Source: Escherichia coli
GTDB taxonomy: Bacteria; Pseudomonadota; Gammaproteobacteria; Enterobacterales; Enterobacteriaceae
Assembly (NCBI RefSeq): GCF_009931435.1
Contig: NZ_CP043414.1
Length of the DNA stretch: 64,000 bases
Direction: 5' to 3' (one strand)
This document shows positions 6,532 to 54,417 of this stretch, piece by piece. The notes beneath the pieces are model-generated. The model ran no database searches. It had not been told where the DNA came from and worked only from the letters and a program-made list of their open reading frames with translations. How positions within the stretch are numbered: the first letter of the stretch is position 1; the number at the start of each line of letters is the position of its first letter. A program made the translations under genes and the position numbers.

Positions 6532-6545
6532 TATCATTCAATGCA

Positions 6546-11403: not shown

Positions 11404-11412
11404 GGAGGAACA

Positions 11413-19024: not shown

Positions 19025-19100
19025 TGGTGCCGATAATAGGAGTCGAACCTACGACCTTCGCATTACGAATGCGCTGCTCTACCAACTGAGCTATATCGGC
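19025..19100 (-). tRNA. thrW: tRNA-Thr (anticodon CGU)
   Basis: Reverse complement reads GCCGATATAGCTCAGTTGGTAGAGCAGCGCATTCGTAATGCGAAGGTCGTAGGTTCGACTCCTATTATCGGCACCA: 76 nt, cloverleaf arms, anticodon loop TTCGTAA, 3' CCA; downstream of proA as thrW is in E. coli. Confidence 0.9.
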
Positions 19101-19214: not shown

Positions 19215-20468
19215 TTATGCACGAATGGTGTAATCACCAATGCCGATCCACTTGTAGGTGGTCAGAGCTTCCAGCCCCATTGGGCCGCGCGCGTGGAGTT
19301 TTTGTGTGCTTACCGCAACTTCCGCACCCAGACCAAACTGGCCGCCGTCGGTAAACCGCGTAGAGGCGTTAACGTAAACAGCGGAGGAATCCACTTCGTT
19401 GACAAAACGCTGGGCATTACGCATATCGCGGGTCAGGATCGCATCGGAGTGTTGCGTACCGTGTTCACGAATATGGGCGATGGCATCGTCAAGATCGCTG
19501 ACGATTTTGACGTTCAAGTCTAATGACAGGAACTCATCGTCATACTCTTCGGCTTTAACAGCCACCACCTTCGCGGGGCCTGCCTGCAACTGCGCCAGCG
19601 CAGTTGCGTCAGCGTGTAATGTCACGCCGCTTTCCGCCATTTGCTTGCTTAATGCGGGCAGGAAGCTATCTGCGATGTTTTTATTTACCAGCAACGTTTC
19701 TACCGTATTACACGTGCTCGGGCGCTGAGTTTTCGCGTTGACAATCACTTTCAATGCTTCAGCGATCTCTGCACTTTCATCAACGTAAATATGGCATACG
19801 CCTATACCACCTGTGATTACCGGAATCGTCGACTGCTCGCGGCACAGTTTATGCAACCCAGCCCCGCCGCGTGGGATCAGCATGTCGATGTATTTATCCA
19901 TACGCAGCAGTTCACTGACCAGCGCACGGTCAGGATTATCAATCGCCTGCACGGCACCCGCCGGTAAACCGCAGGATTTCAGGGCGTCCTGAATCACCGC
20001 CACCGTTGCAGCGTTAGTGCGACAGGTTTCTTTGCCGCCACGCAGAATCACTGCATTACCGGTTTTCAGGCACAGCGAAGCGACATCAACCGTCACGTTC
20101 GGGCGCGCTTCATAAATCACGCCAATCACCCCCAGCGGCACGCGACGGCGTTCCAGGCGCAGGCCACTGTCCAGCACGCCACCATCAATCACCTGCCCCA
20201 CCGGATCGGCGAGGTTACACACCTGGCGCACATCATCGGCAATGCTTTTCAGCCGTGCGGGCGTCAGTGCCAGGCGGTCAAGCATCGCTTCGCTAAGGCC
20301 ATTGGCACGCGCGTCAGCAACATCCTGGGCGTTAGCATTGAGGATGCTTTCGCTTTGTGCTTCCAGTTCATCGGCGATTTTTTCCAGCACGCGATTTTTT
20401 TCGCGACTGGAGAGTTGCGCTAAATTATACGAGGCTTGCTTCGCGGCAATGCCCATTTGTTCCAGCAT
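19215..20468 (-). CDS. proA: ProA, gamma-glutamyl phosphate reductase
   Basis: 417 aa, recognised as E. coli ProA ([36 protein letters not shown]...). Confidence 0.95.
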
Positions 20469-20478
20469 CGGCTGCTCC

Positions 20479-21582
20479 TTAACGGGTAATCATATCATCA
20501 CGGTGAACGGCAACCGGGCCGTATTCATATCCCAGTATTGCATCAATTTCTTGCGAGTGGTGTCCGGCAATACGGCGTAATGCATCGCTGTTGTAACGAC
20601 TGACGCCGTGGGCGATATCGCGACCTTCGAGGTTGCAAATGCGAATGACTTCACCACGCGAGAAGTTGCCGGTTACGCTTTTAATGCCTTTCGGCAACAG
20701 GGAGCTGCCGCGTTCAAGAATGGCGGCGGTTGCCCCTTCATCTACCGTGATTTCACCCGCAGGTGGCGCACCGAAAATCCAACGTTTGCGGTTTTCAAGC
20801 GGAGTCGCCTGGGCATGGAACAGCGTACCGACGGAAATACCTTCCATCACATCACCAATGACACCCGGCTTACTGCCCGCGGCAATAATGGTGTCGATAC
20901 CCGCACGGCAAGCCACGTCAGCGGCCTGCAATTTAGTGCTCATGCCGCCGGTTCCAAGACCTGAAACGCTGTCACCGGCAATCGCGCGCAGTGCGTCATC
21001 AATGCCGTACACATCTTTAATCAGTTCTGCCTGCGGATTGCTACGCGGGTCAGCGGTATACAAACCTTTTTGATCGGTCAGCAACAACAGTTTATCGGCA
21101 CCTGCCAGAATCGCCGCCAGCGCCGAAAGGTTATCGTTATCGCCGACTTTAATCTCTGCAGTAGCGACAGCATCGTTCTCATTAATTACCGGGACAATGT
21201 TGTTATCGAGCAGCGCACGAAGGGTATCCCGCGCGTTAAGGAAGCGTTCACGGTCTTCCATATCAGCACGAGTTAGCAGCATCTGCCCGACGTGAATGCC
21301 ATAAATCGAAAACAGCTGTTCCCACAGTTGAATCAGTCGACTCTGCCCTACCGCCGCCAGAAGTTGTTTCGAGGCGATAGTCGCTGGCAGTTCCGGGTAA
21401 CCCAGGTGCTCACGTCCGGCGGCAATCGCCCCCGACGTCACAATTACAATCCGATGCCCGGCGGCATGTAGCTGCGCGCACTGGCGAACAAGTTCAACGA
21501 TATGGGCACGGTTCAGGCGGCGCGATCCGCCTGTTAGCACACTGGTGCCGAGTTTTACCACCAGCGTCTGGCTGTCACTCAT
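20479..21582 (-). CDS. proB: ProB, glutamate 5-kinase
   Basis: Track ORF 20479-21669; ProB is 367 aa starting [19 protein letters not shown], so start placed at in-frame ATG 21582. Confidence 0.95.
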
Positions 21583-21770
21583 GATTCTCTGCCATTCAAT
21601 TTTAGGGAAAATGATATCAAACGAACGTTTTAGCAGGACTGTCGCCGGTTGCCAACCATCTGCAAGCAAAGCATGGCGTTTTGTTGCGCGGGATCAGCAA
21701 GCGTAGCGGCAGTTGTTTACGCTTTTATTACAGATTTAATAAATTACCACATTTTAAGAATATCATTAAT

Positions 21771-21796
21771 CTGTAATATATCTTTAACAATCTCAG
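21771..21796 (+). promoter_or_regulatory. Pho box (PhoB binding site) in the phoE promoter
   Basis: CTGTAATATATCTTTAACAATCTCAG about 75 nt upstream of the phoE start matches the CTGTCATA-type direct-repeat Pho box; further TTACAG/TTACCAC repeats upstream. Confidence 0.5.
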
Positions 21797-21869
21797 GTTA
21801 AAAACTTTCCTGTTTTCAACGGGGCTCTCCCGCTGAATATTCGCGCGTTAATTAAAATCAGGAATGAAA

Positions 21870-22925
21870 ATGAAAAAGAGCACTCTGGCATTAGTGGTGA
21901 TGGGCATTGTGGCATCGGCATCCGTACAGGCCGCAGAAATATATAACAAAGACGGTAATAAACTGGATATCTATGGCAAAGTTAAAGCCATGCATTATAT
22001 GAGCGATAATGACAGTAAAGATGGCGACCAAAGTTATATCCGTTTTGGTTTTAAAGGCGAAACACAAATTAACGATCAACTGACCGGTTATGGTCGCTGG
22101 GAAGCAGAGTTTGCCGGAAATAAAGCAGAGAGTGATACTGCTCAGCAAAAAACGCGTCTTGCCTTTGCCGGGTTGAAATATAAAGATTTGGGTTCTTTCG
22201 ACTATGGTCGTAACCTGGGGGCGCTGTATGACGTGGAAGCATGGACCGATATGTTCCCGGAATTCGGCGGCGATTCCTCCGCGCAGACAGACAACTTTAT
22301 GACCAAACGCGCCAGCAGTCTGGCAACGTATCGGAACACCGACTTCTTCGGCGTTATCGATGGTCTGAACTTAACCCTGCAATATCAAGGAAAAAACGAA
22401 AACCGCGACGTTAAAAAGCAAAACGGTGATGGCTTCGGCACGTCATTGACATATGACTTTGGCGGCAGCGATTTTGCCATTAGTGGGGCCTATACCAACT
22501 CCGATCGCACCAACGAGCAGAACCTGCAAAGCCGTGGCACGGGCAAGCGTGCAGAAGCATGGGCAACAGGCCTGAAATACGATGCCAATAATATTTACCT
22601 GGCAACTTTCTATTCTGAAACGCGTAAAATGACGCCAATCTCTGGTGGTTTTGCCAATAAGACGCAGAACTTTGAAGCAGTCGCTCAATACCAATTCGAC
22701 TTTGGCCTGCGTCCATCGCTGGGTTATGTCTTATCGAAAGGGAAAGATATTGAGGGCATCGGTGATGAGGATCTGGTCAATTATATTGATGTCGGTGCTA
22801 CATATTATTTCAACAAAAATATGTCGGCCTTTGTTGATTATAAAATCAACCAACTGGACAGCGATAACAAATTAAATATTAATAATGATGATATTGTCGC
22901 GGTTGGGATGACCTATCAGTTTTAA
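21870..22925 (+). CDS. phoE: PhoE, phosphate-starvation outer membrane porin
   Basis: Track ORF begins MKMKKSTL; PhoE precursor is 351 aa starting [21 protein letters not shown], so start at 21870 (AGGA SD 7 nt upstream). Confidence 0.95.
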
Positions 22926-22933
22926 TGGAGATT

Positions 22934-22960
22934 GCCGGATGCGGCGCATCCGGCACTTTT
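22934..22960. terminator. Hairpin terminator between convergent phoE and crl
   Basis: GCCGGATGCG...CGCATCCGGC perfect stem followed by ACTTTT, immediately after the phoE stop. Confidence 0.5.
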
Positions 22961-22963
22961 CAC

Positions 22964-23422
<459 letters not shown>

Positions 23423-24667
23423 TTAACACAATCGTTTTTCGATCCAGCTCGTGATTTCCTGAAGACCTTTGTCAAAATTCCGATACACCGGATTAAATGG
23501 AATCTCTAACAATTTACCATCAGCAGATGATGAGGTGATTAAGCGTGAGTCCTCTTCCGGGCTGAACGGATCGTTCTTCCAGTAGCCTGATAACATTGGC
23601 GTCGGGCAGCGACGGCCCAGCAATCCTTGCACTTTTAATGAATAACGATTCAGTTCCACACGCAACGCTTCATCGGAAGCATCATGCATCCCCAAACGAC
23701 TCGCCAGAACGTCAAGATACATTTCCGGCACCTGTTGCTGGCACTTAAAATCACTCAACAGGGTATGAACTACCGGACCAAGACAAGCAACCGCTTTCAG
23801 ACGCGGCGATTCAAGATATGCCAGACGCACAGCAACGTTAGCGCCAAAACGGAAACCAAAGGCCGCGACACGGGTGTGATCCACCCACGGGACGTTAGGC
23901 AGCGCCTTTAAGACGTGCTGATGCAACAGGCTGGAGTCCTGGGTGAGCTTCCATTTTGAAGAAAAGCCCACCGACGGCATATCAATAGTCAGCATCGCAA
24001 TGCCGCGCGGGGCAAAATAACGTTCATACAGACTGTAATAATCCGTCTGCATCGCATCCAGACCACCACACATTAATACCGTCGGGAACGGGCCATCGCC
24101 TTTCGGCATATGCAAAAAGCCGGTGATGGGCGCACCGCCTGGTACGGTAAACTCCATCTGCCGCATCGTGCCCGGCAGACGTTGGGCGGCCTCTTCATAG
24201 GCACGGTTTGACAAAGCCTGCGCTTGCTCGGCCAGGTCATCCCCTTTCAGATGAGGATAGGCGGCAATGTTGTACAACGTGGCCGCATGCAGCCAGTGAC
24301 GACCACTGAGTTGTGGATCTTCTTCCGCACAAGCTTTTTGTTGCCACACCATCGCCTGGGTGGCCCATTCATAAATCCAGTTGCCGCCGCGGTAGCCAAT
24401 CACCGTATCGTATAAATCATCGTCGGTACGTTCAGCATCGCTCATCACAATACGCGCCTGAACGTCGAGGATTTCACGTGGGTCAATGCCGCGCCAGATC
24501 CACATCAGACGGTTTATCATGCGATACCAGTGGGGGATGGTTTTACCATCAAGGGCCGACTGCACAGGCGGTTGTGCGCCGTGATTAAAGCGGCGGACTA
24601 GCGTCGAGGTTTCAGGATGTTTAAAGCGGGGTTTGAACAGGGTTTCGCTCAGGTTTGCCTGTGTCAT
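23423..24667 (-). CDS. frsA: FrsA, fermentation/respiration switch esterase
   Basis: 414 aa, recognised as FrsA ([27 protein letters not shown]...). Confidence 0.95.
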
Positions 24668-24758
24668 GGATGCAGCCTCCAGAATACTTACTGGAAACTA
24701 TTGTAACCTGCCTGAAGTTAAAAAGAACAACGCCCGGCAGTGCCAGGCGTTGAAAAGA

Positions 24759-25217
24759 TTAGCGACCGGAGATTGGCGGGACGAATACGACGCCCATATC
24801 CCACGGCTGTTCAATCCAGGTATCTTGTGGGATATCAACAACATAATCATCAACCAGCGGACGACCTGCCGGTTTAGCGAAGATGGTGACAAAGTGCGCT
24901 TTTGGATACATTTCACGAATCGCAACCGCAGTACCGCCGGTATCCACCAGATCATCAATAACGATGAAGCCTTCGCCATCGCCTTCTGCGCGTTTCAGCA
25001 CTTTAAGCTCGCGCTGGTTGTCGTGATCGTAGCTGGAAATACAAACGGTATCGACATGACGAATACCCAGTTCACGCGCCAGTAACGCACCCGGTACCAG
25101 ACCGCCACGGCTTACGGCAATAATGCCTTTCCATTGTTCAGAAGGCATCAGTCGGCTTGCGAGTTTACGTGCATGGATCTGCAACATGTCCCAGGTGACG
25201 ATGTATTTTTCGCTCAT
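24759..25217 (-). CDS. gpt: Gpt, xanthine-guanine phosphoribosyltransferase
   Basis: 152 aa, recognised as Gpt ([23 protein letters not shown]...); hairpin plus T-run terminator on minus strand at about 24720-24752. Confidence 0.95.
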
Positions 25218-25477
25218 GTGAAGTGTCCCAGCCTGTTTATCTACGGCTTAAAAAGTGTTCGAGGGGAAAATAGGTTGCGCGAGATTATAGAGATCTGACG
25301 CACTAAAAACCAGTATTTCACATGAGTCCGCGTCTTTTTACGCACAGCCTCTCCCTGACGCGGGATAAAGTGGTATTCTCAAACATATCTCGCAAGCCTG
25401 TCTTGTGTTGACAACATTTTCTGCTAACCCTGTGACCTGCAATACTGTTTTGCGGGTGATCGACAAGGAGACTTAAC

Positions 25478-26935
25478 GTGTCTGAACTGTCTCAATTATC
25501 TCCACAGCCGCTGTGGGATATTTTTGCCAAAATCTGTTCTATTCCTCACCCGTCCTATCATGAAGAGCAACTCGCTGAATACATTGTTGGTTGGGCAAAA
25601 GAGAAAGGTTTCCATGTCGAACGCGATCAGGTGGGTAATATCCTGATTCGTAAACCTGCTACCGCAGGTATGGAAAATCGTAAACCGGTCGTCTTACAGG
25701 CCCACCTCGATATGGTGCCGCAGAAAAATAACGACACCGTGCATGACTTCACTAAAGATCCTATCCAGCCTTATATTGATGGCGAATGGGTTAAAGCGCG
25801 CGGTACCACGCTGGGCGCGGATAACGGCATTGGTATGGCCTCTGCACTGGCGGTTCTGGCTGACGAAAACGTGGTTCACGGCCCGCTGGAAGTGCTGCTA
25901 ACCATGACCGAAGAAGCCGGTATGGACGGGGCGTTCGGCTTACAGAGCAACTGGTTGCAGGCTGATATTCTGATTAACACCGACTCCGAAGAAGAAGGTG
26001 AAATCTACATGGGTTGTGCTGGGGGTATCGACTTCACCTCCAACCTGCATTTAGATCGTGAAGCCGTTCCGGCTGGTTTTGAAACCTTCAAATTAACCTT
26101 AAAAGGTCTGAAAGGCGGTCACTCCGGCGGTGAAATCCACGTTGGCCTGGGTAACGCGAACAAACTGCTGGTGCGCTTCCTGGCGGGACATGCAGAAGAA
26201 CTGGACCTGCGTCTTATTGATTTCAACGGCGGCACACTGCGTAACGCCATCCCGCGTGAAGCCTTTGCGACCATCGCTGTCGCAGCTGATAAAGTCGACG
26301 CACTGAAAACGCTGGTGAATACCTATCAGGACATCCTGAAAAACGAGCTGGCAGAGAAAGAGAAAAATCTGGCCTTGTTGCTGGACTCTGTTGCGAACGA
26401 TAAAGCTGCCCTGATTGCGAAATCTCGCGATACCTTTATTCGTCTGCTGAACGCCACCCCGAACGGTGTGATCCGCAACTCCGACGTGGCAAAAGGTGTG
26501 GTTGAAACCTCCCTGAACGTCGGTGTCGTGACCATGACCGACAACAACGTAGAAATTCACTGTCTGATCCGTTCTCTGATCGACAGCGGTAAAGACTACG
26601 TGGTGAGCATGCTGGATTCGCTGGGTAAACTGGCTGGCGCGAAAACCGAAGCGAAAGGCGCATATCCTGGCTGGCAGCCGGACGCTAATTCTCCGGTGAT
26701 GCATCTGGTACGTGAAACCTATCAGCGCCTGTTCAACAAGACGCCGAACATCCAGATTATTCACGCGGGCCTGGAATGTGGTCTGTTCAAAAAACCGTAT
26801 CCGGAAATGGACATGGTTTCTATCGGGCCAACCATCACCGGTCCGCACTCTCCGGATGAGCAGGTTCACATCGAAAGCGTAGGCCATTACTGGACACTGC
26901 TGACTGAACTGCTGAAAGAAATTCCGGCGAAGTAA
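25478..26935 (+). CDS. pepD: PepD, cytosolic non-specific dipeptidase
   Basis: 485 aa with GTG start (AAGGAG SD upstream), recognised as PepD (SELSQLSPQPLWDIFAKICSIPHPSYHEEQ...). Confidence 0.95.
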   Translation: MSELSQLSPQPLWDIFAKICSIPHPSYHEEQLAEYIVGWAKEKGFHVERDQVGNILIRKPATAGMENRKPVVLQAHLDMVPQKNNDTVHDFTKDPIQPYIDGEWVKARGTTLGADNGIGMASALAVLADENVVHGPLEVLLTMTEEAGMDGAFGLQSNWLQADILINTDSEEEGEIYMGCAGGIDFTSNLHLDREAVPAGFETFKLTLKGLKGGHSGGEIHVGLGNANKLLVRFLAGHAEELDLRLIDFNGGTLRNAIPREAFATIAVAADKVDALKTLVNTYQDILKNELAEKEKNLALLLDSVANDKAALIAKSRDTFIRLLNATPNGVIRNSDVAKGVVETSLNVGVVTMTDNNVEIHCLIRSLIDSGKDYVVSMLDSLGKLAGAKTEAKGAYPGWQPDANSPVMHLVRETYQRLFNKTPNIQIIHAGLECGLFKKPYPEMDMVSIGPTITGPHSPDEQVHIESVGHYWTLLTELLKEIPAK

Positions 26936-26991
26936 TTTTTTGATTTGCTGCCGGATGGCGTTTGATCGTCTTCCGGCAGTTTCATCCTTTC

Positions 26992-27606
26992 TTATCCTTC
27001 GATAAAAGCCATCCCTGTAAACGTCCGTCGCGGGTTGCCACGTTCAATCTGGTGATGGAACATTCGCCGCTGCGATTTCAGCGCCGCGCTATTTTCCTGT
27101 TGCTGTTGCTCCAGCTTCCAGGCAATCAGCAATCGCGCCAGCCGTTTGTTGGCATGTTGGCTGCGCTCTGACTGAACCTTCACGCTAATCCCGGATGCCA
27201 GATGCGTGGCGCGTACCGCCGAGTCGGTTTTATTGACATGTTGACCGCCCGGCCCCGACGAACGCAGCGTCTCATAACGGATTGCATCCGATTGTTCCTG
27301 CTCATCAGCGGTAAAACGCCCAATGCCCAGAAACCAGTTTTTGCGCCCATGATGAGGCCGATACGGGCTTGGGCAAATCCACTGAATAGTGCCGCACCAA
27401 CTTTCGCTTAATGCCCATGCGTTATCGCCATCCAGAGAAATCAGCGCCGAACGCAGCGTGTCAGAGTAGCGGCCCGTTTCTGTTTCCAGCACCGTTACCG
27501 CGACGTCTTGTCGGGTAGCTTCTTTAATCAACCTGTCCAGCGCCTTTTTCACTGCGAGACAACATTCTTCCGGTCCCTGAGCTGAGGAGAGTTGCAGCAA
27601 GATCAT
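26992..27606 (-). CDS. prfH: PrfH, peptide chain release factor homolog (RF-H), apparently intact
   Basis: Track ORF 26992-27690; start set at in-frame ATG 27606 giving 204 aa ([21 protein letters not shown]...); contains GGQ motif ([17 protein letters not shown]); ATGA start/stop overlap with upstream rtcB-like gene. Confidence 0.8.
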
Positions 27607-28754
27607 CCTTTTTTCCCTCCACTGTTTTTGAGCGTCAGCACCGGACGCAGTCGCGCGGCAGGAATAATTAAACCGGCCTGCACCAGACATTGCACCACAC
27701 TTTCAGCCGATTTATAGGCTTGTGGCGCTTCTTCAAAGATGAGTTGTTTATCGCGACAAATTACCCGACCGCCAAGTTCAGTACGTGAGAGTTGCGTCGC
27801 CGTGTATTTCGCTGCCAGACGCCCTTTACACTCGGTGCGCCCCCATTTACGCCCTGCCCCATGCGCCAGTGAGTGAAGCGTTTTTTCGTTCGCAACAGGT
27901 TTAACCAGCCAGGAGTAATCACCGCGTGAACCGGGAATAATCACCAGACCGTTGTCATCCGGCGTAGCCCCTTTACGGTGTAACCATCCTTGTTGATCGC
28001 CGATTCGACATGCGCTAACAAAGTTATGCGCCACATCCAGAACCGAATTTCCGTTGGCCTTAACTTGTTGCATTATGCGCAAAGCGATCAGCTGGCGATT
28101 AATACGCGCAAACGCCAGCGCATCATCATGTTCCGCAATATAACTTAGCGCGTCGTCACTGCCTTCCGGCAAACCATGATGCGAAAACGAGGCAATATGC
28201 CGCTGTAAAATAGACTGCCCTAAACCACGCGAGCCGCTATGGACCAGCAGTTGCAGATGCTGCGCATCCAGACCTGACAGTGCAAACAGTTCCGCATCGA
28301 TGATTTGATCAATCTGTTGCAGTTCTGCAAAGTGGTTACCGCCACCGATAGAGCCAAGCGCGCAGCGCCACGGATGCTGTGCAAACGCTGACGGCAGGTT
28401 TTCCTCCAGCCAGCTTTCTTCAGCAACGTCATCCAGCGCAGATAATCGCTTTTCAAACTTATCGGCGTTGTATTTACGCGCGAGAATATCTGTTTGCCAT
28501 AGCGCCATACCGCAGCCGATATCATTGCCGACCAGTGCCGGGTAAAAACGGCCTACGGAGAAGAACGCTGCGCCAATCGGATAGCCGCGTCCTGGGTGTA
28601 AATCTGGCATCCCTACGACGCGTTGCATGTCGGGTAAATTTGCCGTGGTGTGTAATTGTTGGATCGCTGAACTCTCGATCCACAGGTCATCAGATGCGAT
28701 GGTAAATACCGCATCGGATAAGGGACGAATATATTTGCCCATGTACCATTCCAT
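27603..28754 (-). CDS. RtcB-family RNA ligase paralog (RtcB2/YkfJ), apparently intact
   Basis: 383 aa; RtcB-like motifs ([34 protein letters not shown]); translationally coupled to prfH. Start could be the fifth codon. Confidence 0.8.
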
Positions 28755-29059
28755 TTATACTCGTCATACTTCAAGTTGCATGTACTGCGACTGCGTTCGT
28801 TCACCCCAGTCACTTACTTTAGTAAGCTCCTGGGGATTCACTCGCTTGTCGCCTTCCTGCAACTCGAATTATTTAGAGTATATAAATATAAAAATCAGGA
28901 AATGGCAGACGAATCCAGGGCAAGAAAAAAAGAATTAATCCTGGAAAGGTCTGCAAAGAGTCATTGATAAAGGATTTTTCATGATTTACCTCCTTGCAGT
29001 TTGTGGAATAAGAAAACGCGCACATATTAGGCGGGCGTTATTTTCATTGCAAGCTGGAT

Positions 29060-29512
29060 TTAGTGTTGCGGTTTATATCGCATATGAAAATTAGTAAACC
29101 ACGCTCCCCGGCATTCAACGCGCTGCTGCTTAACTGTCTGAAAACCATAACGTTCAAAAAAGGGTTTTGCGGTTATGCTGGCATCTACCGTAAGTTCGGA
29201 TTCAGACTTAATCAAAGGTTTTAACAAAGCGCTGGCAACCCCGCAGCGGTTGTATTTCGGATCAACAAATAACATATCGATATAATGCTCAATGCAGGTA
29301 ATAAAGCCGACCAGTTGTGTATTAATCACCGCAACCCGCACTTGTGATTTCGCGAGTTTCTCTTTCCATCGATGTTCATCAATCTGCGCCCAGGCGGCAA
29401 TTTGTTGTGGTGAATAATGCTGACTGGCGGTCATCGTAACCGCTCTAATAAAAATAGCGCATAGCTGCTGAAAATCGCCAGGCTGATAGTCTCTTATTTG
29501 TATATTATTCAT
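29060..29512 (-). CDS. yafP: YafP, GNAT-family acetyltransferase
   Basis: 150 aa recognised as YafP ([21 protein letters not shown]...); ATGA overlap with dinB stop. Confidence 0.85.
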
Positions 29513-30564
29513 AATCCCAGCACCAGTTGTCTTTCCATTTGCGGATCAAGCAACGTCACATGCAGCCCCACCAGTCGCACACCGCGTCCGCCCCGGCGTT
29601 CATCCCAGGTTTTACGCGCAGTGGCGATCAAGTCAGCTTTATTCAGCCGCGGCCAGACGTGTTCCTGGGTGGTTTGCTGAAAATCGTCGAACTTTAATTT
29701 CACCCCCTGGCGGGCAATCAGTAAATCAGGTTTTACCTTTGCCAGACGACGCTCCAGTTCAGGGTAAAGCCGCTCGATGATCGCTTCACATTCAGACCAG
29801 TGATGAATATCTTCCGCCATGGTGCGTTCTACACCGACGGATTTTCGCAACCTTTCGCTGTTAACGTCGCGCTCGTCAATCCCCTGACTACGCTCCCACA
29901 AAATGCGACCAAATTTGCCAAAGCGTTTAAGCAACGTCACCAGATCACACTTTTGTACATCGCCGCAGGTCCGCAGCCCCATCGCTTCCAGTTTTGCCGC
30001 CGAGACTTTGCCGACACCGGGAATTTTTGCCAGCGGTAAGGTTTGCAGAAATGCCGGGACGTCCGCCGGCGTAATCACAAACTGTCCGTTGGGTTTATTC
30101 ATATCAGAGGCGATTTTGGCGAGAAACTTGACCGGCGCAACGCCCGCAGACGCCGTCAGTTGCAGCTCGTTGAAGATCGTCTGGCGGATTTCCTGAGCGA
30201 TAAGGGTCGCAGAGCCGTGGCAATGTACGCTGTCGGTGACGTCGAGATAGGCTTCATCCAGTGACAGCGGCTCAATACGCGATGTGTAGCGAGAGAAGAT
30301 TTCGCGGATATGATTTGACGCTTCTTTGTAGGCGTCAAAGCGCCCTGGAAGCAAGGTGAGATGCGGACACAGTTTGAGCGCCATGCCGGTTGGCATTGCG
30401 CTACGCACGCCAAATTTACGCGCGGGATAATTGGCGGTGCTGATCACCCCCCGGCGTTCGCGGCTGCCGCCAATAGCAATAGGGATATCGCGCAGGGCGG
30501 GATTGTCGCGCATCTCCACCGCGGCGAAAAAGCAGTCCATATCCACATGAATGATTTTACGCAT
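29509..30564 (-). CDS. dinB: DinB, DNA polymerase IV
   Basis: 351 aa, recognised as DinB ([33 protein letters not shown]...). Confidence 0.95.
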
Positions 30565-30578
30565 TGCTCACCTCTCAA

Positions 30579-30598
30579 CACTGGTAAAGTATACAGTG
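30579..30598 (-). promoter_or_regulatory. LexA (SOS) box of dinB
   Basis: Plus strand CACTGGTAAAGTATACAGTG = reverse complement of CACTGTATACTTTACCAGTG, a CTGT-N8-ACAG palindrome about 15 nt upstream of the dinB start. Confidence 0.6.
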
Positions 30599-30634
30599 AT
30601 TTCAGAGTTTGAGAAATGCGTAAAGATTCAGCAT

Positions 30635-31400
30635 TTAACGCGTTCGCTGCGAAAGCACCTGCTGCTTATCCAGCTTTTTCACCAGCGGCTGCACCACCTT
30701 ATCCCCATGCTGACCAAAATATTGATACAACGTATCAGACGCGCTTTTGGTGAGCACCATAATCTCAATGCGCCGGTTACCCGCACTTTGCGGATTTTTC
30801 GTGTCCAGCAGCATCTGGTCCGCCATTGCGCTCACCTGCATCACTTTATCTTCCGGCATCCCGGCCTCTTCCAGCACCCGACGAGCCGAGAGCGCACGAT
30901 CGCCCGAAAGGTTCCAGTTGTTGTAGATATTGCTTTTATAGGCCATCGCATCGGTATGCCCGGTAATAATAATTTTGTTATCGAGCGAGTCGAATACCGG
31001 CGCGAGCTCCACCAGCAGAGTTTTAAAGAACGGCATAATCTTCGCGCTGCCGCGTTCAAACATATTGCGGTTCTGGTCATCTTTAATCAGCACGCGTAAT
31101 CCCTGCGGGACAATCTCCATCTCCAGATTGGCTTCCATATGCGCATCGCGGGCGATGGTGTTGATACTGGTCGCCAGCTCGCCAAGCTCAGTGGCGGACT
31201 TCTTCTTCAGTAGCGCCGTTTTCTCGTTGACGTCGCGGGCTTTTTTCTCCGTCTCTTCCGGCACCGCCACGGTGGCAGGTTTCAGCGGATGCGTCGGGCT
31301 GATTTTATTTAACGGCGATAGCCCGCCGCCATTGAAAATCGACTGCCCGTGCAGCGCGGCGATAATGCTTTCACGCTCGGATTTACTGACGCTGTTGACA
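30635..31400 (-). pseudogene. lafU: lafU (Flag-2 MotB-like) fragment, N-terminally truncated
   Basis: Track ORF 30635-31552; MotB-like OmpA C-terminal domain (ITGHTDAMAYKSNIYNNWNLSGDRALSARRVLEEAG) but no proper TM/N-terminus; its 5' part is antisense to the lfhA fragment. Boundary approximate. Confidence 0.6.
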
Positions 31401-33104
31401 ATCAACTTTATTGTCGTCACCAAAGGGGCTGAGCGTATTTCCGAGGTTTCTGCCCGCTTTACCCTGGACGCGATGCCCGGCAAGCAAATGGCGATTGACG
31501 CCGATCTTAACGCCGGGTTGATCAACCAGGCGCAGGCGCAGACCCGCCGCAAAGATGTTGCCAGCGAGGCCGATTTCTACGGCGCGATGGACGGGGCATC
31601 GAAGTTTGTGCGCGGGGATGCCATCGCCGGGATGATGATTCTGGCGATCAACCTGATTGGCGGCGTTTGTATCGGGATCTTCAAATACAACCTGAGCGCC
31701 GATGCCGCCTTCCAGCAATATGTGCTGATGACCATCGGCGACGGCCTGGTGGCGCAGATCCCGTCCCTGCTGCTTTCCACCGCGGCGGCGATTATCGTCA
31801 CCCGCGTCAGCGACAACGGCGATATTGCCCATGACGTGCGCCACCAGTTGCTGGCAAGCCCGTCGGTGCTCTACACCGCCACCGGGATTATGTTCGTGCT
31901 GGCGGTGGTGCCGGGAATGCCGCACTTCCCGTTCCTGATGTTCAGCGCCCTGCTTGGTTTTACCGGCTGGCGAATGAGCAAACGCCCGCAGGCGGCGGAG
32001 GCGGAAGAGAAAAGCCTCGAAACGCTGACCCGCACCATCACTGAAACCAGCGATCAACAGGTCAGTTGGGAAACCATTCCGCTGATCGAGCCCATCAGTT
32101 TAAGCCTCGGTTACAAGCTGGTGGCGCTGGTGGACAAAGCGCAGGGCAACCCGCTCACCCAGCGTATTCGCGGCGTGCGGCAGGTGATTTCCGACGGCAA
32201 CGGCGTGCTGCTGCCGGAGATCCGCATTCGGGAAAACTTCCGCCTCAAGCCCAGCCAGTACGCCATTTTCATCAACGGCATTAAGGCTGATGAAGCGGAT
32301 ATTCCGGCGGATAAACTGATGGCCCTGCCCTCCAGCGAAACCTACGGCGAGATTGACGGCGTGCTGGGGAACGACCCGGCGTACGGGATGCCGGTGACCT
32401 GGATTCAGCCCGCGCAGAAGGCGAAGGCGCTGAATATGGGGTATCAGGTGATCGACAGCGCCAGCGTAATTGCCACGCATGTGAATAAGATTGTGCGCAG
32501 CTATATTCCTGATTTGTTTAACTATGACGATATTACTCAGCTGCATAACCGTTTGTCGTCAATGGCACCGCGCCTGGCAGAGGATTTGAGTGCGGCGCTG
32601 AATTACAGCCAGTTGCTGAAAGTGTACCGGGCACTGCTGACCGAAGGCGTTTCCCTGCGCGATATCGTCACCATCGCCACCGTGCTGGTCGCCAGTAGCA
32701 CCGTCACCAAAGATCATATTCTGCTGGCGGCCGATGTGCGCCTGGCACTGCGGCGCAGCATTACCCATCCGTTCGTTCGCAAGCAGGAGCTGACGGTGTA
32801 TACGCTGAATAATGAGCTGGAAAATCTGCTGACCAACGTGGTGAATCAGGCGCAACAGGCCGGCAAAGTGATGCTCGATAGCGTGCCGGTTGACCCAAAT
32901 ATGCTCAACCAGTTCCAGAGCACGATGCCGCAGGTGAAGGAGCAGATGAAAGCGGCAGGTAAAGACCCGGTGCTGCTGGTGCCGCCGCAGCTGCGCCCGT
33001 TGCTGGCGCGTTATGCGAGGTTATTTGCGCCGGGGTTGCATGTGCTGTCGTATAACGAAGTGCCGGACGAGCTGGAGTTGAAGATTATGGGGGCGTTGAG
33101 TTGA
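31401..33104 (+). pseudogene. lfhA: lfhA (Flag-2 FlhA-like) fragment lacking its N-terminal membrane region
   Basis: Track ORF 30975-33104; FlhA similarity begins about codon 143 (INFIVVTKGAERISEVSARFTLDAMPGKQMAIDADLNAG), earlier codons are antisense of lafU; no promoter or start at the homology onset. Boundary approximate. Confidence 0.6.
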
Positions 33105-33187
33105 TTGAGGATTCTTTTCCATACTTTGCAGCACCTGACACCATTAATTGACGTCACACTGCAAAGAGACTACGATGACACCATACA

Positions 33188-33487
33188 ATGACGTCATGGA
33201 TTGATAGTATGATTAAGGTCAGCGCGCTAGGCTCTCGTCATAGAAAAACATTCGACGATGTAATGACGGAGCCGCCAAAATCTGGAATTAAATGGGATGA
33301 TGTTGTTGCTCTCATTAAAGCGGTGGGTGGATCAATAAAAAATAACAACGGCTCCAGACGAAAATTTCAGATTGGAACGACCAAATTCAGCACACATGAG
33401 CCGCATCCAAAGAATGTGATGGATAAAGGCGCAGTAGCAGGTCTTAAGGAGTGGTTTGTTAACTGTGTAGGGGTAGATTATGAATAA
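33188..33487 (+). CDS. Putative HicA-like toxin (type II TA), hypothetical
   Basis: 99-aa ORF overlapping the next ORF by 8 nt; C-terminal half (VVALIKAVGGSIKNNNGSRRKFQIGTTKFSTHEPHPKNVMDKGAVAGLKEW) loosely fits the HicA/YcfA pattern. Start uncertain (alternative ATG about 21 nt downstream). Confidence 0.4.
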   Translation: MTSWIDSMIKVSALGSRHRKTFDDVMTEPPKSGIKWDDVVALIKAVGGSIKNNNGSRRKFQIGTTKFSTHEPHPKNVMDKGAVAGLKEWFVNCVGVDYE

Positions 33488-33836
33488 AGCATCGAACATT
33501 ATCACAATTAAAGGTCAACCAGCCGCAGTGACATTTGAAGCCGATATCAACGCATTTCGCGGCAAGTTCCTCAATGTAAACGGTTATTGTGACTTTGTAG
33601 CCACAAGTATTGAGGCATTATATCGTGAAGGCGAAAGCGCTCTGGATGAGTGGATGGCGGATTGTGAAGAGGACGGTATTGCCCCTTTTCGTGAAGAAGA
33701 AGAGCAAAAACGCCTGACGCTTCGTGTGCCGCATCACATCGATTCGCGGCTGACCATCGTCGCCAGACAACATTCCATTTCAAAAAACCAGCTCATTATT
33801 GATGTCTTAGAACGTGAGTTTTCAGCCCAGATGTAA
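33480..33836 (+). CDS. Putative HicB-like antitoxin with C-terminal ribbon-helix-helix
   Basis: 118 aa; N-terminal HicB/UPF0150-like segment and C-terminal RHH-like segment (KRLTLRVPHHIDSRLTIVARQHSISKNQLIIDVLEREF). Confidence 0.5.
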   Translation: MNKASNIITIKGQPAAVTFEADINAFRGKFLNVNGYCDFVATSIEALYREGESALDEWMADCEEDGIAPFREEEEQKRLTLRVPHHIDSRLTIVARQHSISKNQLIIDVLEREFSAQM

Positions 33837-37049: not shown

Positions 37050-37195
37050 TTTTCAGGTCGGATGCGGCGTGAATGCATTATTCGGCCTACGGTTCGGGTA
37101 CAGATTTGTAGGCATGATAAGACGCGTCAGCGTCGCATCAGGCATCAGCGCACAAGTGCCGGATGCGGCGTAAACGCCTTATCCAGCCTACGCCA
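37050..37195. repeat. REP/BIME cluster (three REP palindromes)
   Basis: Three copies of the REP motif (GTCGGATGCGGCGTGAATGCATTATTCGGCCTAC; GTAGGCATGATAAGACGCGTCAGCGTCGCATCAGGC; GCCGGATGCGGCGTAAACGCCTTATCCAGCCTAC) in alternating orientation between yafJ and gmhA. Confidence 0.65.
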
Positions 37196-43950: not shown

Positions 43951-46900
43951 CTATTCTGGCGTACCCGTTATTGTCATCGTCTGCAACGGTCCATCCACCC
44001 GATAAAAAGGCAGTCCACTATGAGCTCCTCTGACACACTCATCTAAAGTTTTCGCCGCACGCGATTCAATTATTGTAATAACCCTTGCCTCTTCTTTATT
44101 ATCATATTTCTTATCCGTCCGACTTAAAAGAGCCATGAAATTTTCTTTATCAAGAAGGTAATACTGTGCATGTGCAAACTCATGCCCCAAACCTAATGCA
44201 GGCGATTGTGATTTCGAGTTTAATTCAGTTGAACAAAATAAAGACGCTCTACTATTCCAATATATCGTCATATTATTCGAATTAAATCTACCATTGGTTC
44301 CTTCAATATACTCTATATTTATAGTTTCTTCAGAGCTTGATAAAAAATCTATAGCATCTTTCATTCGTGAATCTTTTTCTAAATACTTAACAGCCTGATT
44401 AAAATCACTTGGATCACCATTAACCTCGAATTTTAAACCCAAAGAATCTATAAACCGAACAGGGTTTAATGGATATTTATACAGATTCCATTCACCTCTT
44501 AGCCCGATTGGATCCTGCGTGATATACCTCCCCTGCAACGGGTCATAGTACCGGTGACGGTTGTAGTACAGCCCCGACTCCTCATCATACTGCTGCCCTG
44601 GCAGACGGTACGGCTGTTGCAGGTGCTCCGGGTTTTCCTCTCCCAGCAGGTTTCCCCACTCGTCATACTCCCCGCGCCACGCCGTTTCCCCTTCCGGGCT
44701 GATAAGCGCCTGCGGCAGCCCACGGTGGTCACAGTGGTAAAGATGAAGTTTCCTCTCCGGGATGTATTCTTCCTCCATCTGGTTGTTCATCTGTTCCGCC
44801 GTCAGCCCGCACTGCGCAAGCCATGCTTCACTCTCCGCACTCACCGCACCCGCGCGCAGTTCCCGCTCCAGCCTCCCCAGCATCACCGACAGCTCCGCCG
44901 GGAGCGTCACACCCGTGTCCTCCTGCAACACCTCCGCCAGGCTACGGTGCCGCGCCTTCGCCTGTTCGCCATTCTCTGTTTCGATTCTCAGGAGCGGCGT
45001 GAAGCTTCCCGGCTGATAAATCGTCTGGATACGTGTGGTGCCGGTCTGTACCGTCGTCAGCCTGTCACCGTCCCACCCGTACCATGTCTCCTCCGGTTTA
45101 CGCGACAGCGACATCCATCCCGTCAGGTCACGCTCCCGCCGCCACACCCGTTTTCCCGTCCTGCGGCCCAGCGGGTCGTAAAGGTAGCGGCTCTCCACCT
45201 GCGGCTCGCCGTGCTGTATCCGCGTGTAGAACACCAGACGGTGCTGGCTGTCGTAATGGTAGTGGTGGGTGCGCTCGTCGTGCATCCGTATCACCCCTTC
45301 CGGGATACGGTCCGTCTTCTCCGCCAGCCTGCCGTATTCATCGTGGCGGTAGACATAGTGCGCATCTTCCGCGATGCGGTTATCCGGCCACGCCGTGAAG
45401 GTGCTGTCCGGGTGCAGTTCCGGGTCCGGCAGCCGGTTTCCTGCCGGGTCCGTCGCATACGGGATATCAATGTCCAGGTTCGCTGCCGTGGTGTGGACGC
45501 CCGTCAGCCTTCCCGTGTCGCTGTAACGGTACTCCCGGCTCTCCTGCGGGCCGCTGATACGCACCAGTTGCCCGTTATCATTCCACGTATACTCACGGTC
45601 AAGCTGCGGAAGGTTCAGGTGCCTGCTCCGGAGCTGGCCTGTGAGGGTGTATGTGCTGGTCAGTTCATATGCGGCATTACTGCCTGCCATGCTGCCGAAG
45701 CTGCGCACCGTCTCACGGTGCAGCCTGTCCCGCGTGTACTCGACCAGCGGCGTTCCGCCCAGCTTCATCCCCGCAAGATAACCGCTGCCATACGTCAGCC
45801 ACTCCACCGGCGGCAGACCGTCCGGCTCCTGACGGGTCGCCAGCCCCTGTTCGCTGTACGCGTGCCCCGTCTCATGCTCCCACAGCATCTCCCCCGTCTC
45901 CGGGTTCTCCACCGTCTGCCGTTCGCCCGTCAGGCGGCCCTTATCGTCATAGCCGTAGTGGACCGCCACACGGTGGCCTTCACTGGTATGGCTGAGGGTG
46001 GTTAACCACCCGTGCTCATCATACTGCCACTGCTCTGCCGCTTCGCCGTTCACCGTCCGGTGCGTGATGCGGTCCGACGCATCGTAGTGCCAGAGGGTGA
46101 TAAGTCCCTCGTCTTCACTGCGGACAAGCTGCCCTGTGGCGCTGTACCGGTAACGCTGTGTCCGTCCGTCAAAGCCGCGCTGCTCCGTCAGGCGGTCCAC
46201 CGGGTCATACAGGAACGTGGACTGGCTGCCGTTCTCATTAGTCAGCGTGGTGATGCGCCCGGCGGCGTCATACCCCATGCTGCGCGTCAGACCGCCCTGC
46301 GTGGTGCTGATAGCTTTACCCCACGCATCATACTGTGTCTCACTGCGGCTGCCGTTCGGGGCAATGATAGCGGTGAGGTCGCCTGCGGCGCTGTACTCAT
46401 AACGGGTTTCACGCCCCTGCACATCCTTCTGACTGACCAGTTGACCACGCGGGTTATAACTGCTGTAAGTGCTGATGCCTTCTTCCCGGTGAACCGCCGT
46501 CCTCTGCCCGTACCGGTCGTACTCATACCGTGTCGTGTACCCCGAGCAGTCCGTGAAGGCCAGCAGTTGACCGTAGCGGCTCCATGCCATCTGTTTTGTA
46601 CTGCCCGTCGCATCCTGTATCCCTGTCGGCAGCTCACTCGCCGGGTCATCATAGCTGTACCGCGTCGTCTCACCGCTGCGCGAGGTCTCCGCCGCCAGCC
46701 TTCCCTTCTCATCATACTCCCGGCTGCTGCGAAGCCCGTCCGGGTACGTCACTGACGTCACCTGCCGCTGGCTGTTGTAGCCATACCGCACCGTCCTGCC
46801 GTCCGGCCCCGTCACCGCCGTCACCGCGCCCGACGCCATATGCAGGCTGTACTCCGTCCGCCGCCCCGCCGCATCCGTCTGCGCCTTCAGCCTCCCCGCC

Positions 46901-48207
46901 GCATCATACTCGCTGCGGGTGATGCTCCCGTCCGCATGCTCCTTCTTCACCACCCGCTTCAGGCCACCCTCGCCTTCCGTGTACAGCACCTCCCGCCTGT
47001 TCAGGCTGTCCGTGATGGTCACACGGTCCTGCCCGTACTCAAAGCGGTAGGCCAGCCCCTCCGGGTTGACCTGCTCCGTCACCCGACCGGTATCATCATA
47101 CCGGTAGCGGCTCTCCGGCCTCCCCGCATAATGGTGCGCCACCATCCGCCCGGCGTGCTCCGCATCATAAGTAAACCCGCGCACCTGCGTCCCGCTGCGG
47201 TCATACACCGCCAGCAACTCACCGCTGGCCGTGTACGTGTAGCGCGCCAGCGGCGCAGTCGGCTGTTCATCCGGGTATGCCGGGTCGTGTGTCAGCCACA
47301 CCGCCTCCAGCCGGATACCGTTATCGGCACCGTATTCTGTACCGGCGGGCAGCGTGTCGGGGAAAACCTGAGAAGAGGAAACAGAACGGGGACCGGCAGG
47401 GGAAGATAAAGACGTGGCGCGCTGTTTACGGCAGGCTTCCGCCCGCTGCGCCTGCGTGCTCAGCAACAGGTGAAAACGACGGCCCGCACCGTCCGTCCCC
47501 CCCGTCACCGCGCCCGCCACGTCACCCTCCGCTGCCCGGTGAAAGGCCAGCGTCCGACCAAAGCCATCCACCACGCCCGTCAGCACCCGGTATGCGGGCG
47601 GTTCCGGCGGCAGCACCTCGTCCGCCCCCGGCACCCGCTCCGGCCAGCTGAGTATCCACCACGGCCCCTGAAGGCTGTTTGTCGCCAGGTACACATGCGG
47701 ACTCAGGCGAACATCTTCCGGCAGCACCTGCCAGAGCGCGCTTAGCGGCTGCGAACTGTGCTGCTCCGCCCCCCCGCCCCGCGCCAGCCAGAACGACTCG
47801 CTGCGGCTGTAGCTTATCTCGCCGGGAAACAGCGGCTCAAAGTGAATGCTCCTGCCGCCGTTGTCGTTGAGTATCAGTTCCCGCTCATGAACCTGTAAGC
47901 GGATATCGAAGGGCGCTTTCCAGCCGGGGCCGAACACGCCCACCGGCGCGGGCGTCCTGGTCCGGTAACTGCTGTAAGCGCGGGAAAGAATAAACGGCAG
48001 CGGGCCGGGCAGTGCCAGGTCCGTCTCGCCCGGCAGCACCTTCGCACCCAGCACCGGGTTCACCGGGTTAGCATAGGTAATCCCTCCCGGACACACCGAG
48101 CAGGCCACTCCCGTCGGCGCACCTATCAGCACCCCTGCTGAACCCTGCACAATATCCAGTCCCTTGCGGGTCATGTCGCCCTGCCGCGCCGCCGGTTTTC
48201 CGCTCAT
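43951..48207 (-). CDS. PAAR-Rhs polymorphic toxin (Rhs2), HExxH-containing C-terminal domain
   Basis: 1418 aa; N-terminus carries a literal PAAR motif ([13 protein letters not shown]...GSAGVLIG); long YD-repeat core; core ends [27 protein letters not shown]; last about 160 aa unique, with HEFAH. Confidence 0.9.
44497..47450. repeat. Rhs core direct repeat, copy A (paired with 50623-53580)
   Basis: Track shows identical 483-aa antisense ORFs at 44554-46005 and 50680-52131, so at least 1.45 kb is nucleotide-identical between the two Rhs genes; flanking core highly similar with scattered substitutions. Outer boundaries approximate. Confidence 0.8.
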
Positions 48208-48330
48208 GGTTTATTCCTCTTCCTCTGAATAAACTTATTTTTGATGCACTAATGATTTTCAAAAGAGATTTATATTTAACGACAATTCAGCACTTTTAAT
48301 GTAAAAGATCCCCGGCTGAATGATATTCAC

Positions 48331-49323
48331 TCATTGTTTGTTATCAGAAAGTGTTTTATACAGCGGCACATATCCCACGTCTTCCACAAGACTTTGCCCC
48401 TGAGGGCTTAAAAACCAGTCCACTAGTTTTTGTGTTTCCGGTGTCGGCTTTTCGCGGGTGACCATGTAGGCATCCACCACATACGGATAAGTACCGTTGC
48501 GGATATTCTCCACCGTTGGTGCAATACCATTTATTGCCAGCAGCTTAAGATTTGGGCTTATATCCTTATTCATCTGTGTGACATAATAGCGGAAGGTGTA
48601 ACCAATTGAAGGCTGCGTATTCCGGTAGGCAATTACTTTGGTTAACACTCCATTCATAAGGCTTACTTCTGTAGATGTTCTGGCGGGTAGCATCGGTGTC
48701 TCTTTCATCACCTTTGCCAGCATCACCGTCTGGCTACCGGAATCTTCCGGACGCTGCCAGACCTGAATGCGCTCATCACTGCCACCAACCTGACTCCAGC
48801 GGGTGATTTTACCGCTGAAGATATCCCGAACCTGCTGTTCAGTAAAAGAACTGACCGGATTACTGGCGTTAACGATAAAAACAAAGGCTTCGTGGGCGAA
48901 GGGGGTATAAACCAGTTTCACCCCGGCATCGGCAGCCCGTTGTTTTTGTCCTGCGGAAGGCTGGGCAACAAAAATAACATCGGCCTGGCGCTTTATGAGA
49001 TCATTATAGGCTTCTGGTGTACGAGTCGGATACATATAATTCAAACCCGGATCTTGATGGTTATCCCCGGGGATCAAATATCGGTAAGCTGAAGCATACA
49101 GTGGATATAACGCGGTTGCACCACATACCCGGGGCCATTTATTCGAGTTATCAGTGTAGCGTAAAGTGGGTTCTCCTCGTATATTGGTTTTCTCCCAACT
49201 CACTGTTTCTTTTACGCTGTTATCGCCCCCGCCGTCTACACATCCTGACATTAATACCGTCATATAAAATAATACTGGTAACAGGCCCACCCTACGCATA
49301 CAATGATTTAATAAATACGCCAT
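48331..49323 (-). CDS. PstS-like (phosphate-binding-protein fold) putative lipoprotein, orphan
   Basis: Track ORF 48331-49365; start placed at ATG 49323 (GAGG SD 5-6 nt upstream) giving MAYLLNHCMRRVGLLPVLFYMTVLMSGC with lipobox-like LMSGC; PstS-like motifs (VIFVAQPSAGQ..., FTEQQVRDIFSGKITRWSQVGGSDERIQVW); no ABC transporter genes nearby. Confidence 0.55.
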   Translation of the reverse strand: MAYLLNHCMRRVGLLPVLFYMTVLMSGCVDGGGDNSVKETVSWEKTNIRGEPTLRYTDNSNKWPRVCGATALYPLYASAYRYLIPGDNHQDPGLNYMYPTRTPEAYNDLIKRQADVIFVAQPSAGQKQRAADAGVKLVYTPFAHEAFVFIVNASNPVSSFTEQQVRDIFSGKITRWSQVGGSDERIQVWQRPEDSGSQTVMLAKVMKETPMLPARTSTEVSLMNGVLTKVIAYRNTQPSIGYTFRYYVTQMNKDISPNLKLLAINGIAPTVENIRNGTYPYVVDAYMVTREKPTPETQKLVDWFLSPQGQSLVEDVGYVPLYKTLSDNKQ

Positions 49324-49627
49324 ATACCTCACTCTAAAATATTGATTATATAAATACATATGCATAATTATATTTACATCAAATTCTGAATGAACAATTT
49401 AAATTTAGAGAAAGTGAAATTTAATTTTTCGATACTTCCGCATACATATTCCCCTCGCTAAAAAATCATCATTCCACAATCAATCATTAATTACAACTCA
49501 ATATACATCATTTAACTTTCATTAAACTCGCAATTTATTATTACATTGTAGCCATTATGAACTGTCATCACGCACACACTCTACATACACATTAGAAACA
49601 ATATAACCCCATGAGCCATCCTCCGTT

Positions 49628-54342: not shown

Positions 54343-54417
54343 GAATCAATTCCTTCTGCTTTTAATATGGTTCATCTGGCCACTGCACCAGTTCCGTTTT
54401 AATTTTTTGCACCTGAC

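Follow-up and report, generated by a model that had tools for sequence, protein, structure and literature searches.

The lfhA (b0229, formerly fhiA) and lafU (b0230, formerly mbhA) genes of Escherichia coli K-12 are described as remnants of the lateral flagellar cluster Flag-2 in two papers that cite Ren et al. 2005, J Bacteriol 187:1430 (PMC3032704, PMC6993521). One of them, again after that study, attributes the loss to deletion between direct repeats (PMC6993521). Across Enterobacterales, lfhA-lafU remnants were recorded in 531 of 4,028 strains, among them 50 of 66 Flag-2-negative Citrobacter clade A strains (De Maayer et al. 2020, PMC6993521). ETT2, the second type III secretion locus of E. 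coli, has undergone attrition by deletion between small direct repeats (PMC5422975). Like Flag-2, it is a large ancestral secretion or motility island that is mostly deleted in E. coli and has its breakpoints at short repeats. Unlike Flag-2, which is reported as either fully present or fully absent, it has left many intermediate forms of attrition (PMC5422975); the all-or-none state of Flag-2 fits the single junction observed here. The locus reported here lies at positions 30635 to 33104 of a 64-kb stretch of E. coli DNA (contig NZ_CP043414.1), hereafter the window, and all positions are coordinates of the window unless an L-numbered locus is given. It is almost certainly the scar of a deletion of about 35 kb that joined lafU codon 53 to lfhA codon 131 at a 3-bp microhomology. 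The scar itself is already known. The identity of the junction across genera, its native flanks, and the open reading frames of the remnants are modest additions from a small sample. On balance, they are best read as the record of one deletion allele that arose once and has been swapped with the intact cluster by homologous recombination.

The window carries the same fragments as K-12, in the same orientation, with the same junction and at the same site beside dinB. The two are colinear over the junction at 94.7% identity, i.e., the window is about 5% diverged. The window differs from K-12 in having hicAB and not rayT as its right neighbor, in missing yafNO between dinB and yafP, and in the length of the open frame upstream of the lfhA remnant (154 codons versus 37). 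A preliminary description, made from the letters of the window, had assigned the locus to the known Flag-2 remnant, and the colinearity with K-12 bears this out.

The same description had proposed alignment with an intact Flag-2 cluster. E. coli 2015C-4944 (L001) was used as the intact reference, with lafU at 10741-11664 and lfhA (annotated flhA) at 46200-48293. In L001, lafU is the last gene of the cluster and adjoins dinB, lfhA is the first gene and adjoins hicAB, and about 40 flagellar genes lie in between. These two genes are terminal in the intact Flag-2 clusters of E. coli 042, W, 2015C-4944, and S14, and the window fragments are 94% identical to their 3′ parts. The window matches the lafU side of L001 up to 31403 and the lfhA side from 31401, which maps the junction to the ATC at 31401-31403. 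By alignment coordinates, about 35.1 kb of intact Flag-2 is absent from the window, comprising lafT through lfhB, lafU codons 1-52, and lfhA codons 1-130. There is little doubt that the deletion took about 40 lateral-flagellar genes and, from each of the two terminal genes, the promoter, the start codon, and the 5′ end. The surviving sequence can be called, with high confidence, two pseudogene fragments and the scar of the known Flag-2 loss. The parts of the scar are as follows.

30635..31403, minus strand: lafU remnant, codons I53 to stop (255 aa plus stop), with the OmpA-like peptidoglycan-binding domain kept.
31401..31403, no strand: deletion junction, a 3-bp microhomology (ATC) that is the sole sequence common to both parents at the crossover in a three-way alignment.
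31401..33104, plus strand: lfhA remnant, in which the I131 codon is regenerated by ATC and followed by N132 to stop (566 aa plus stop).
30975..31400, plus strand: spurious N-terminal part of a 709-aa open reading frame (ORF), antisense to lafU and by chance open and in frame with lfhA.
31404..31552, minus strand: spurious N-terminal extension of a 305-aa ORF, antisense to lfhA.

The ATC sits within an imperfect 15-nt direct repeat, CTGnTGAnnATCnAC, with matches at 11 of 15 positions; the product of the repeat lies at 31392-31406. The fragments had been said to abut near 31400 with neither gene complete. The alignment agrees: the truncated 5′ ends stand head to head, and no N-terminus of lafU or lfhA is present. 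Two long overlapping ORFs cross the junction, one of 305 aa with a TTG start (30635..31552, minus strand) and one of 709 aa, also with a TTG start (30975..33104, plus strand). Both are chimeras that run into the antisense of the opposite gene. Residues 1-142 of the 709-aa ORF are antisense lafU, as expected from its earlier designation as a spurious chimera, and residues 1-50 of the 305-aa ORF are antisense lfhA.

Pfam, NCBIfam, and alignment to the intact genes confirmed the earlier naming of the two remnants, lafU (MotB-like, minus strand) and lfhA (FlhA-like, plus strand). In the 305-aa ORF, the OmpA-like domain PF00691 was found at residues 164-257 (E = 3.6e-14). The LafU equivalog model NF005273 was matched over positions 42-297 of 297 at 469 bits, above its 383-bit cut-off, which identifies the C-terminal domain of MotB/LafU; model positions 1-41 were unmatched. 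The N-terminal helix and plug of MotB/LafU were not found. Residues 1-52, including ...AFADFTLAMMALFMTLW, are absent from the remnant; they hold the only hydrophobic helix of LafU, with the FAD aspartate motif. The MotB plug domain PF13677, present in intact LafU, is missing as well. Domain content separates the two types of protein: intact LafU proteins contain PF13677 and PF00691, and scar-type proteins contain PF00691 only. The domain of the LafU piece could not reach the periplasm because the membrane helix is lost.

In the 709-aa ORF, FHIPEP (PF00771) was matched at residues 139-700 over profile positions 99-656 of 657, with nothing before residue 139. Since the match begins at profile position 99, the N-terminus of the profile is missing from the lfhA remnant. 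The FlhA model TIGR01398 was matched over positions 118-677 of 678, with 1-117 absent, and the score of 590 bits is below the 772-bit cut-off. The remnant is therefore not a full-length FlhA/FHIPEP protein by this model, which the intact homolog passes at 773 bits. The intact E. coli LafU and LfhA homologs span both NCBIfam models completely. The lfhA remnant still encodes the FHIPEP loop along with the later transmembrane helices and the cytoplasmic domain. It lacks residues 1-130, and the fourth hydrophobic segment (118-136) is severed mid-way; the LfhA piece thus lacks, beyond reasonable doubt, three and a half export-gate membrane helices at its N-terminal end. In MotB and FlhA, the lost parts are the stator proton-channel helix and plug and the first three to four of eight export-gate membrane helices.

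The scar is common in E. coli. The window region is homologous to E. coli genomes at E = 0 across 2.7 kb and hence not a chance match. It is colinear and ungapped across the junction in 4,072 of 5,426 complete E. coli genomes, and in most of the others it splits into two places. The junction motif, lafU codon 53 joined to lfhA codon 131 at ATC, is present in K-12, O157, E2348/69, and others.

The same junction occurs outside E. coli. One genome per species was scanned with a strict codon-degenerate pattern across the junction, a procedure that undercounts taxa, and the junction was found in E. albertii, Kluyvera ascorbata, and Citrobacter sp. MGH106. Scar-type LafU proteins, which start with (MTTI)KL|IVNSV..., were found in C. 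gillenii, C. amalonaticus, Kluyvera sp., Atlantibacter hermannii, Atlantibacter sp., and Enterobacteriaceae strain H11S18. The scar loci of other genera are 75-80% identical to the window, which is ordinary inter-genus divergence. The remnants in Citrobacter, Kluyvera, Atlantibacter, and strain H11S18 are of the kind recorded by De Maayer et al. 2020. A codon-identical junction across genera, native flanks, and open remnants with low dN/dS are not stated in the text of PMC6993521 that was available and were found here. An E. coli-type scar, 93-95% identical to the window, was also present on contigs of a Collinsella metagenome-assembled genome (MAG) (L017) and a Clostridiales MAG (L019); judged from its sequence, it is probably binning contamination by Escherichia DNA.

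The remnants are well preserved. The lfhA remnant is open over all 566 codons in the Citrobacter, Kluyvera, Atlantibacter, and H11S18 scars, and the lafU remnant is open in every other-genus locus that is readable to its end; in Kluyvera, it is open until the contig edge. Comparisons of remnants between genera gave dS >1 and dN/dS of 0.02-0.13, values that are rough because dS is saturated, and these do not exceed comparisons of intact genes with each other. From E. coli, the sample comprised 17 scars along with 6 intact ends of lfhA and 3 of lafU; each other genus contributed one to three loci. E. coli lfhA remnants are about 5% apart (80-110 differences per 1,701 nt, dS about 0.2), with scar-versus-scar dN/dS of 0.02-0.05, and the frame is open in 16 of 17 E. 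coli-like scars. Shared variants, as opposed to allele-private ones, comprise 20 nonsynonymous and 211 synonymous changes. A rough estimate from the variant counts is that post-deletion mutations amount to a handful in the whole sample.

Flanking sequences carry the states of the local genus almost to the junction. A valine codon near the junction on the lafU side is GTC in Escherichia, GTT in Kluyvera, and GTG in Citrobacter, and further genus-specific sites lie beyond it. Wherever the genera differ in this way, a scar has the same state as the intact gene from its own genus. The K. ascorbata scar is 98.4% identical to intact K. ascorbata lafU over 490 nt and identical in the junction-adjacent 49 nt shown. 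On the lfhA side, scar and intact alleles were compared within Citrobacter and Atlantibacter only, using different species. The Citrobacter scar carries Citrobacter states from 12 nt outward, and the Atlantibacter scar carries Atlantibacter states even at both bases that flank the 2-nt AT core.

Within E. coli, scars and intact alleles form no separate clades. The scar of AVS0969 differs from intact S14 by 1 mismatch in 1,007 nt on the lafU side and by 3 in 1,808 nt on the lfhA side, and for every other sampled scar, the match to AVS0969 ends within 80 nt on the left and within 90 nt on the right. The K-12 lfhA flank has 1 difference in 1,701 nt from intact FDAARGOS_1077, while its lafU flank is about 3% different, from 69 nt outward. 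Right of the junction, E2348/69 and 377323_2f are identical over 1,205 nt; their left flanks are 5.5% apart, with differences already at -1 and -4. A haplotype switch at the junction was thus observed among scars, and distances in the left and right flanks are weakly correlated (r = 0.30).

These patterns are consistent with a junction that behaves as an absence allele. It would alternate with the intact cluster, and homologous recombination would exchange both states between strains. Crossovers that fall at the border of the 35-kb heterology, or right beside it, would leave scar flanks that are mostly recent copies of the flanks of working clusters. The remnants would then look young, i.e., open, low in dN/dS, and genus-native up to the junction, because their flanks had been copied recently, and a function would not be needed. 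RuvC-type ATT|G sites are found at -4..-1 and +7..+10 of the junction. A Holliday junction or branch point could stall at the heterology and be cut at these adjacent sites.

Several observations weigh against a single, exchanged allele. A single origin needs conversion tracts that end 1-12 nt from the junction in every genus. Genus-specific synonymous states lie on the lafU side at positions -4, -16, and -22 and on the lfhA side from +12 outward, and the Atlantibacter scar has its own states at -1 and +3. RecA-mediated exchange of the ordinary kind calls for at least some 25 nt of homology past a marker. For five genera to share the junction, there must have been a balanced polymorphism of great age or else transfer between sequences about 20% diverged. 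Finally, allele-private variants of the 17 scar alleles comprise 12 nonsynonymous changes and 1 stop versus 76 synonymous changes, and relaxed constraint is barely detectable because these private variants are mostly synonymous.

Two other origins of the shared junction were considered and rejected. Chance re-use of the ATC microhomology in five genera is not tenable because far better repeats are abundant between the cluster ends: there are four exact 11-mers and seventeen 10-mers, and about 2,160 15-mer pairs match as well as or better than the 11/15 pair that was used. Passage of the E. coli junction to other genera by ordinary recombination was rejected because native synonymous states begin 1-12 nt away; no E. 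coli-like tract was found around the junction in Citrobacter, Kluyvera, or Atlantibacter. To our knowledge, and compared by eye, the junction has no likeness to XerCD dif, integron core, or invertase sites.

The strongest competing history is a sequence-directed, precise deletion repeated independently in each species at the same two codons, caused by structure-prone DNA at the breakpoints or by a hairpin-guided or site-specific nuclease or recombinase acting in trans. Every scar that was looked at has the sequence that a clean deletion in the local intact cluster would leave: the K. ascorbata scar matches the local intact lafU flank up to the junction, the Atlantibacter scar has Atlantibacter states on both sides, and the AVS0969 scar matches intact S14 on both sides. 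Near-uncorrelated flank haplotypes that switch at the junction are also expected if 35 kb had separated the two ends until recently. The lafU breakpoint lies in the loop of an inverted repeat with an 8-bp stem, GACGCTGT-n9-ACAGCGTC, and the lfhA breakpoint abuts the palindromes ATCATC-CT-GATGAT and GATGATCATC. A hairpin or palindrome hotspot was nevertheless rejected: K. ascorbata, whose Leu codon is TTA, lacks the lafU hairpin, and the lfhA palindromes are by-products of Ile, Leu, and Met codons. The exact microhomology is only 3 bp, and many far better repeats lie between the same genes, e.g., the exact 11-mer ATGCCCGGTAA. No recombinase gene is annotated within the Flag-2 cluster of L001. 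The hairpin-acting transposase homolog rayT neighbors lfhA in some E. coli only and does not adjoin it in the window or in the Citrobacter, Kluyvera, or Atlantibacter loci. No spontaneous loss at the junction is described in the papers that were read. Repeated deletion directed to these codons fits the same data but is unlikely, and it is equally unlikely that Flag-2 loss is a repeated precise excision at lafU I53 and lfhA I131 in at least five genera and not one accident. If true, it would imply an undescribed mechanism that cleanly removes a 35-45-kb cluster, or a recombination rule that resolves exactly at the edge of heterology; in a related view, presence and absence of the cluster would form a polymorphism that is older than the split of these genera.

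A further explanation is that the remnants are kept by purifying selection, with truncated LfhA (its later membrane helices and cytoplasmic ring domain), truncated LafU, or both in a new role and with the lfhA remnant translated from an internal start. The lfhA remnant does remain open over 566 codons in five genera despite the saturated dS, and its low dN/dS between genera, its low scar-versus-scar dN/dS, and its intact frame in nearly all E. coli-like scars are what selection would produce. The lafU remnant, however, is equally preserved even though it has no helix to place its domain in the periplasm, and a shared, non-functional cause is more economical because both remnants are equally preserved. 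The low dN/dS was also inherited from working genes, given that a scar and an intact allele of one species can be identical. In the two closest pairs of a scar and its relative, the changes are one nonsense and one nonsynonymous, with zero synonymous.

Sequence signals for expression do not favor selection either. Between 30975 and 31800, no in-frame ATG, GTG, or TTG has a Shine-Dalgarno match of more than 3 nt. The open frame upstream of the junction is 19, 37, 85, 109, 125, or 154 codons long among strains and genera, with 154 in the window, 37 in K-12 and O157:H7, 85 in E. albertii, and 19 in Citrobacter. Because this stretch varies in length, the 709-aa ORF is not conserved. The lfhA remnant thus has neither a start with a ribosome-binding site nor a conserved upstream frame by which a protein-coding gene would be recognized, and RefSeq labels it an incomplete pseudogene. 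Null alleles segregate: the lfhA remnant is interrupted by a nonsense codon in E2348/69 and by a frameshift in E. albertii NBRC 107761, and the lafU remnant of CFIAFB20190167 (L032 236-1021) contains an internal stop. The suggestion in the preliminary description that the lfhA fragment may be translated from an internal start found no support in these starts, frames, and alleles. A literature search on fhiA/mbhA expression or phenotype returned nothing relevant. One promoter-like site aims into the lfhA remnant.

31339..31366, plus strand: weak sigma-70-like match, TCGACT-16-GATAAT (9/12), within antisense lafU and aimed into the lfhA remnant.

The region contains 5 promoter-like sites, versus 2.4 expected by chance, and only this one aims into the lfhA remnant. 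By eye, its -10 hexamer is not retained in the Citrobacter flank, and the match is not regarded as evidence of expression. Maintenance by selection is therefore very improbable.

Least probable of all is the textbook account of one accidental ancestral deletion with vertical inheritance only and neutral decay: the junction is identical in all scars and deletion between direct repeats is the cause given in the literature (PMC6993521, citing Ren et al. 2005), yet a neutral 1.7-kb frame at about 5% divergence, or at dS >1, would be full of stops and frameshifts and is open almost everywhere, and the scars form no clade apart from intact alleles and switch flank haplotypes at the junction. As these alignments are read here, the vertical-only, neutral version is already contradicted and would survive only with added recombination.

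A single deletion allele that recombines with the intact cluster remains the favored history. With one breakpoint in native sequence in five genera, open remnants, and flanks that switch haplotype at the junction, the scar offers a clean natural system for asking how strains lose and regain large gene clusters and whether recombination endpoints pile up at heterology borders. It also carries a warning that low dN/dS or an intact ORF in a fragment does not equal function when the fragment exchanges sequence with working copies. A re-identified textbook pseudogene pair matters little by itself; the cross-genus side result could matter more for genome evolution.

The locus is also an annotation trap, in that the lafU fragment passes the NCBI LafU model and gene callers yield chimeric FlhA proteins of 700 aa. 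RefSeq-style annotation gives lafU at 30635-31420 (minus strand) as an intact 261-aa coding sequence with a GTG start at 31420 that lies within antisense lfhA. The truncated lafU is called intact because the fragment exceeds the NF005273 cut-off (469 versus 383 bits). The protein cluster of truncated-type LafU has 6,260 member sequences, an annotation artifact that spreads widely. Among full-coverage homologs, many E. coli LfhA/FlhA clusters (P0123-P0149) are 645-680 aa long versus 697 and 93-98% identical; these lengths suggest in-frame deletions, or a different choice of start codon in annotation, in Flag-2 clusters that are otherwise intact.

The neighboring genes place the scar at the Flag-2 chromosomal site, with yafP and dinB to the left and hicA, hicB, yafL, dinJ-yafQ, and dpaA to the right. 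In the window, the lafU 3′ fragment lies directly upstream of dinB and is transcribed toward it.

29509..30564, minus strand: dinB, the conserved left neighbor, which fixes the chromosomal position of the scar.
33188..33836, plus strand: hicA-hicB toxin-antitoxin pair, the right neighbor, between lfhA and yafL.

The REP-associated tyrosine transposase gene rayT occupies the hicAB slot in K-12, O157, and S14, and each of the two neighbors, hicAB or rayT, occurs with both scar and intact clusters. At 29060-30564, yafP directly follows dinB with a 4-nt overlap, and the yafN-yafO pair of K-12 is absent, as it is in E2348/69, 2013C-4282, and S14. The best identity of the scar region (30500-33200) is 97.3%, to strain 2013C-4282. 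In this strain, the closest relative of the window, dinB is frameshifted (L002 3011-4065). The proBA region (window 19215-28800) is at most 98.5% identical to any of 5,379 complete E. coli genomes, and about half of them are below 95%. The window is not typical of E. coli and probably comes from a divergent Escherichia lineage.

Elsewhere in the window, the Rfam nucleoid-associated RNA naRNA4 was matched at 37111-37188 (minus strand, 76 bits), and an 84-nt naRNA4 element with 89% identity is also found within intact Flag-2 (L001 41802-41884). The Rfam IS009 RNA was matched at 6340-6540 (minus strand, 196 bits). A tRNA beside proA at 19028-19100 (minus strand) marks the thrW site at which islands usually integrate. 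Between the IS009 RNA and this tRNA lie genes for LysR-type and short-chain dehydrogenase proteins, which are not known at this position in K-12. Two Rhs-repeat proteins of about 1,420 aa (43951-48207 and 50071-54342, minus strand) are encoded downstream of a VgrG-like protein (54418-56559), and the span 43951-56559 (minus strand), with its tandem pair of rhs genes, is a type VI secretion effector region.

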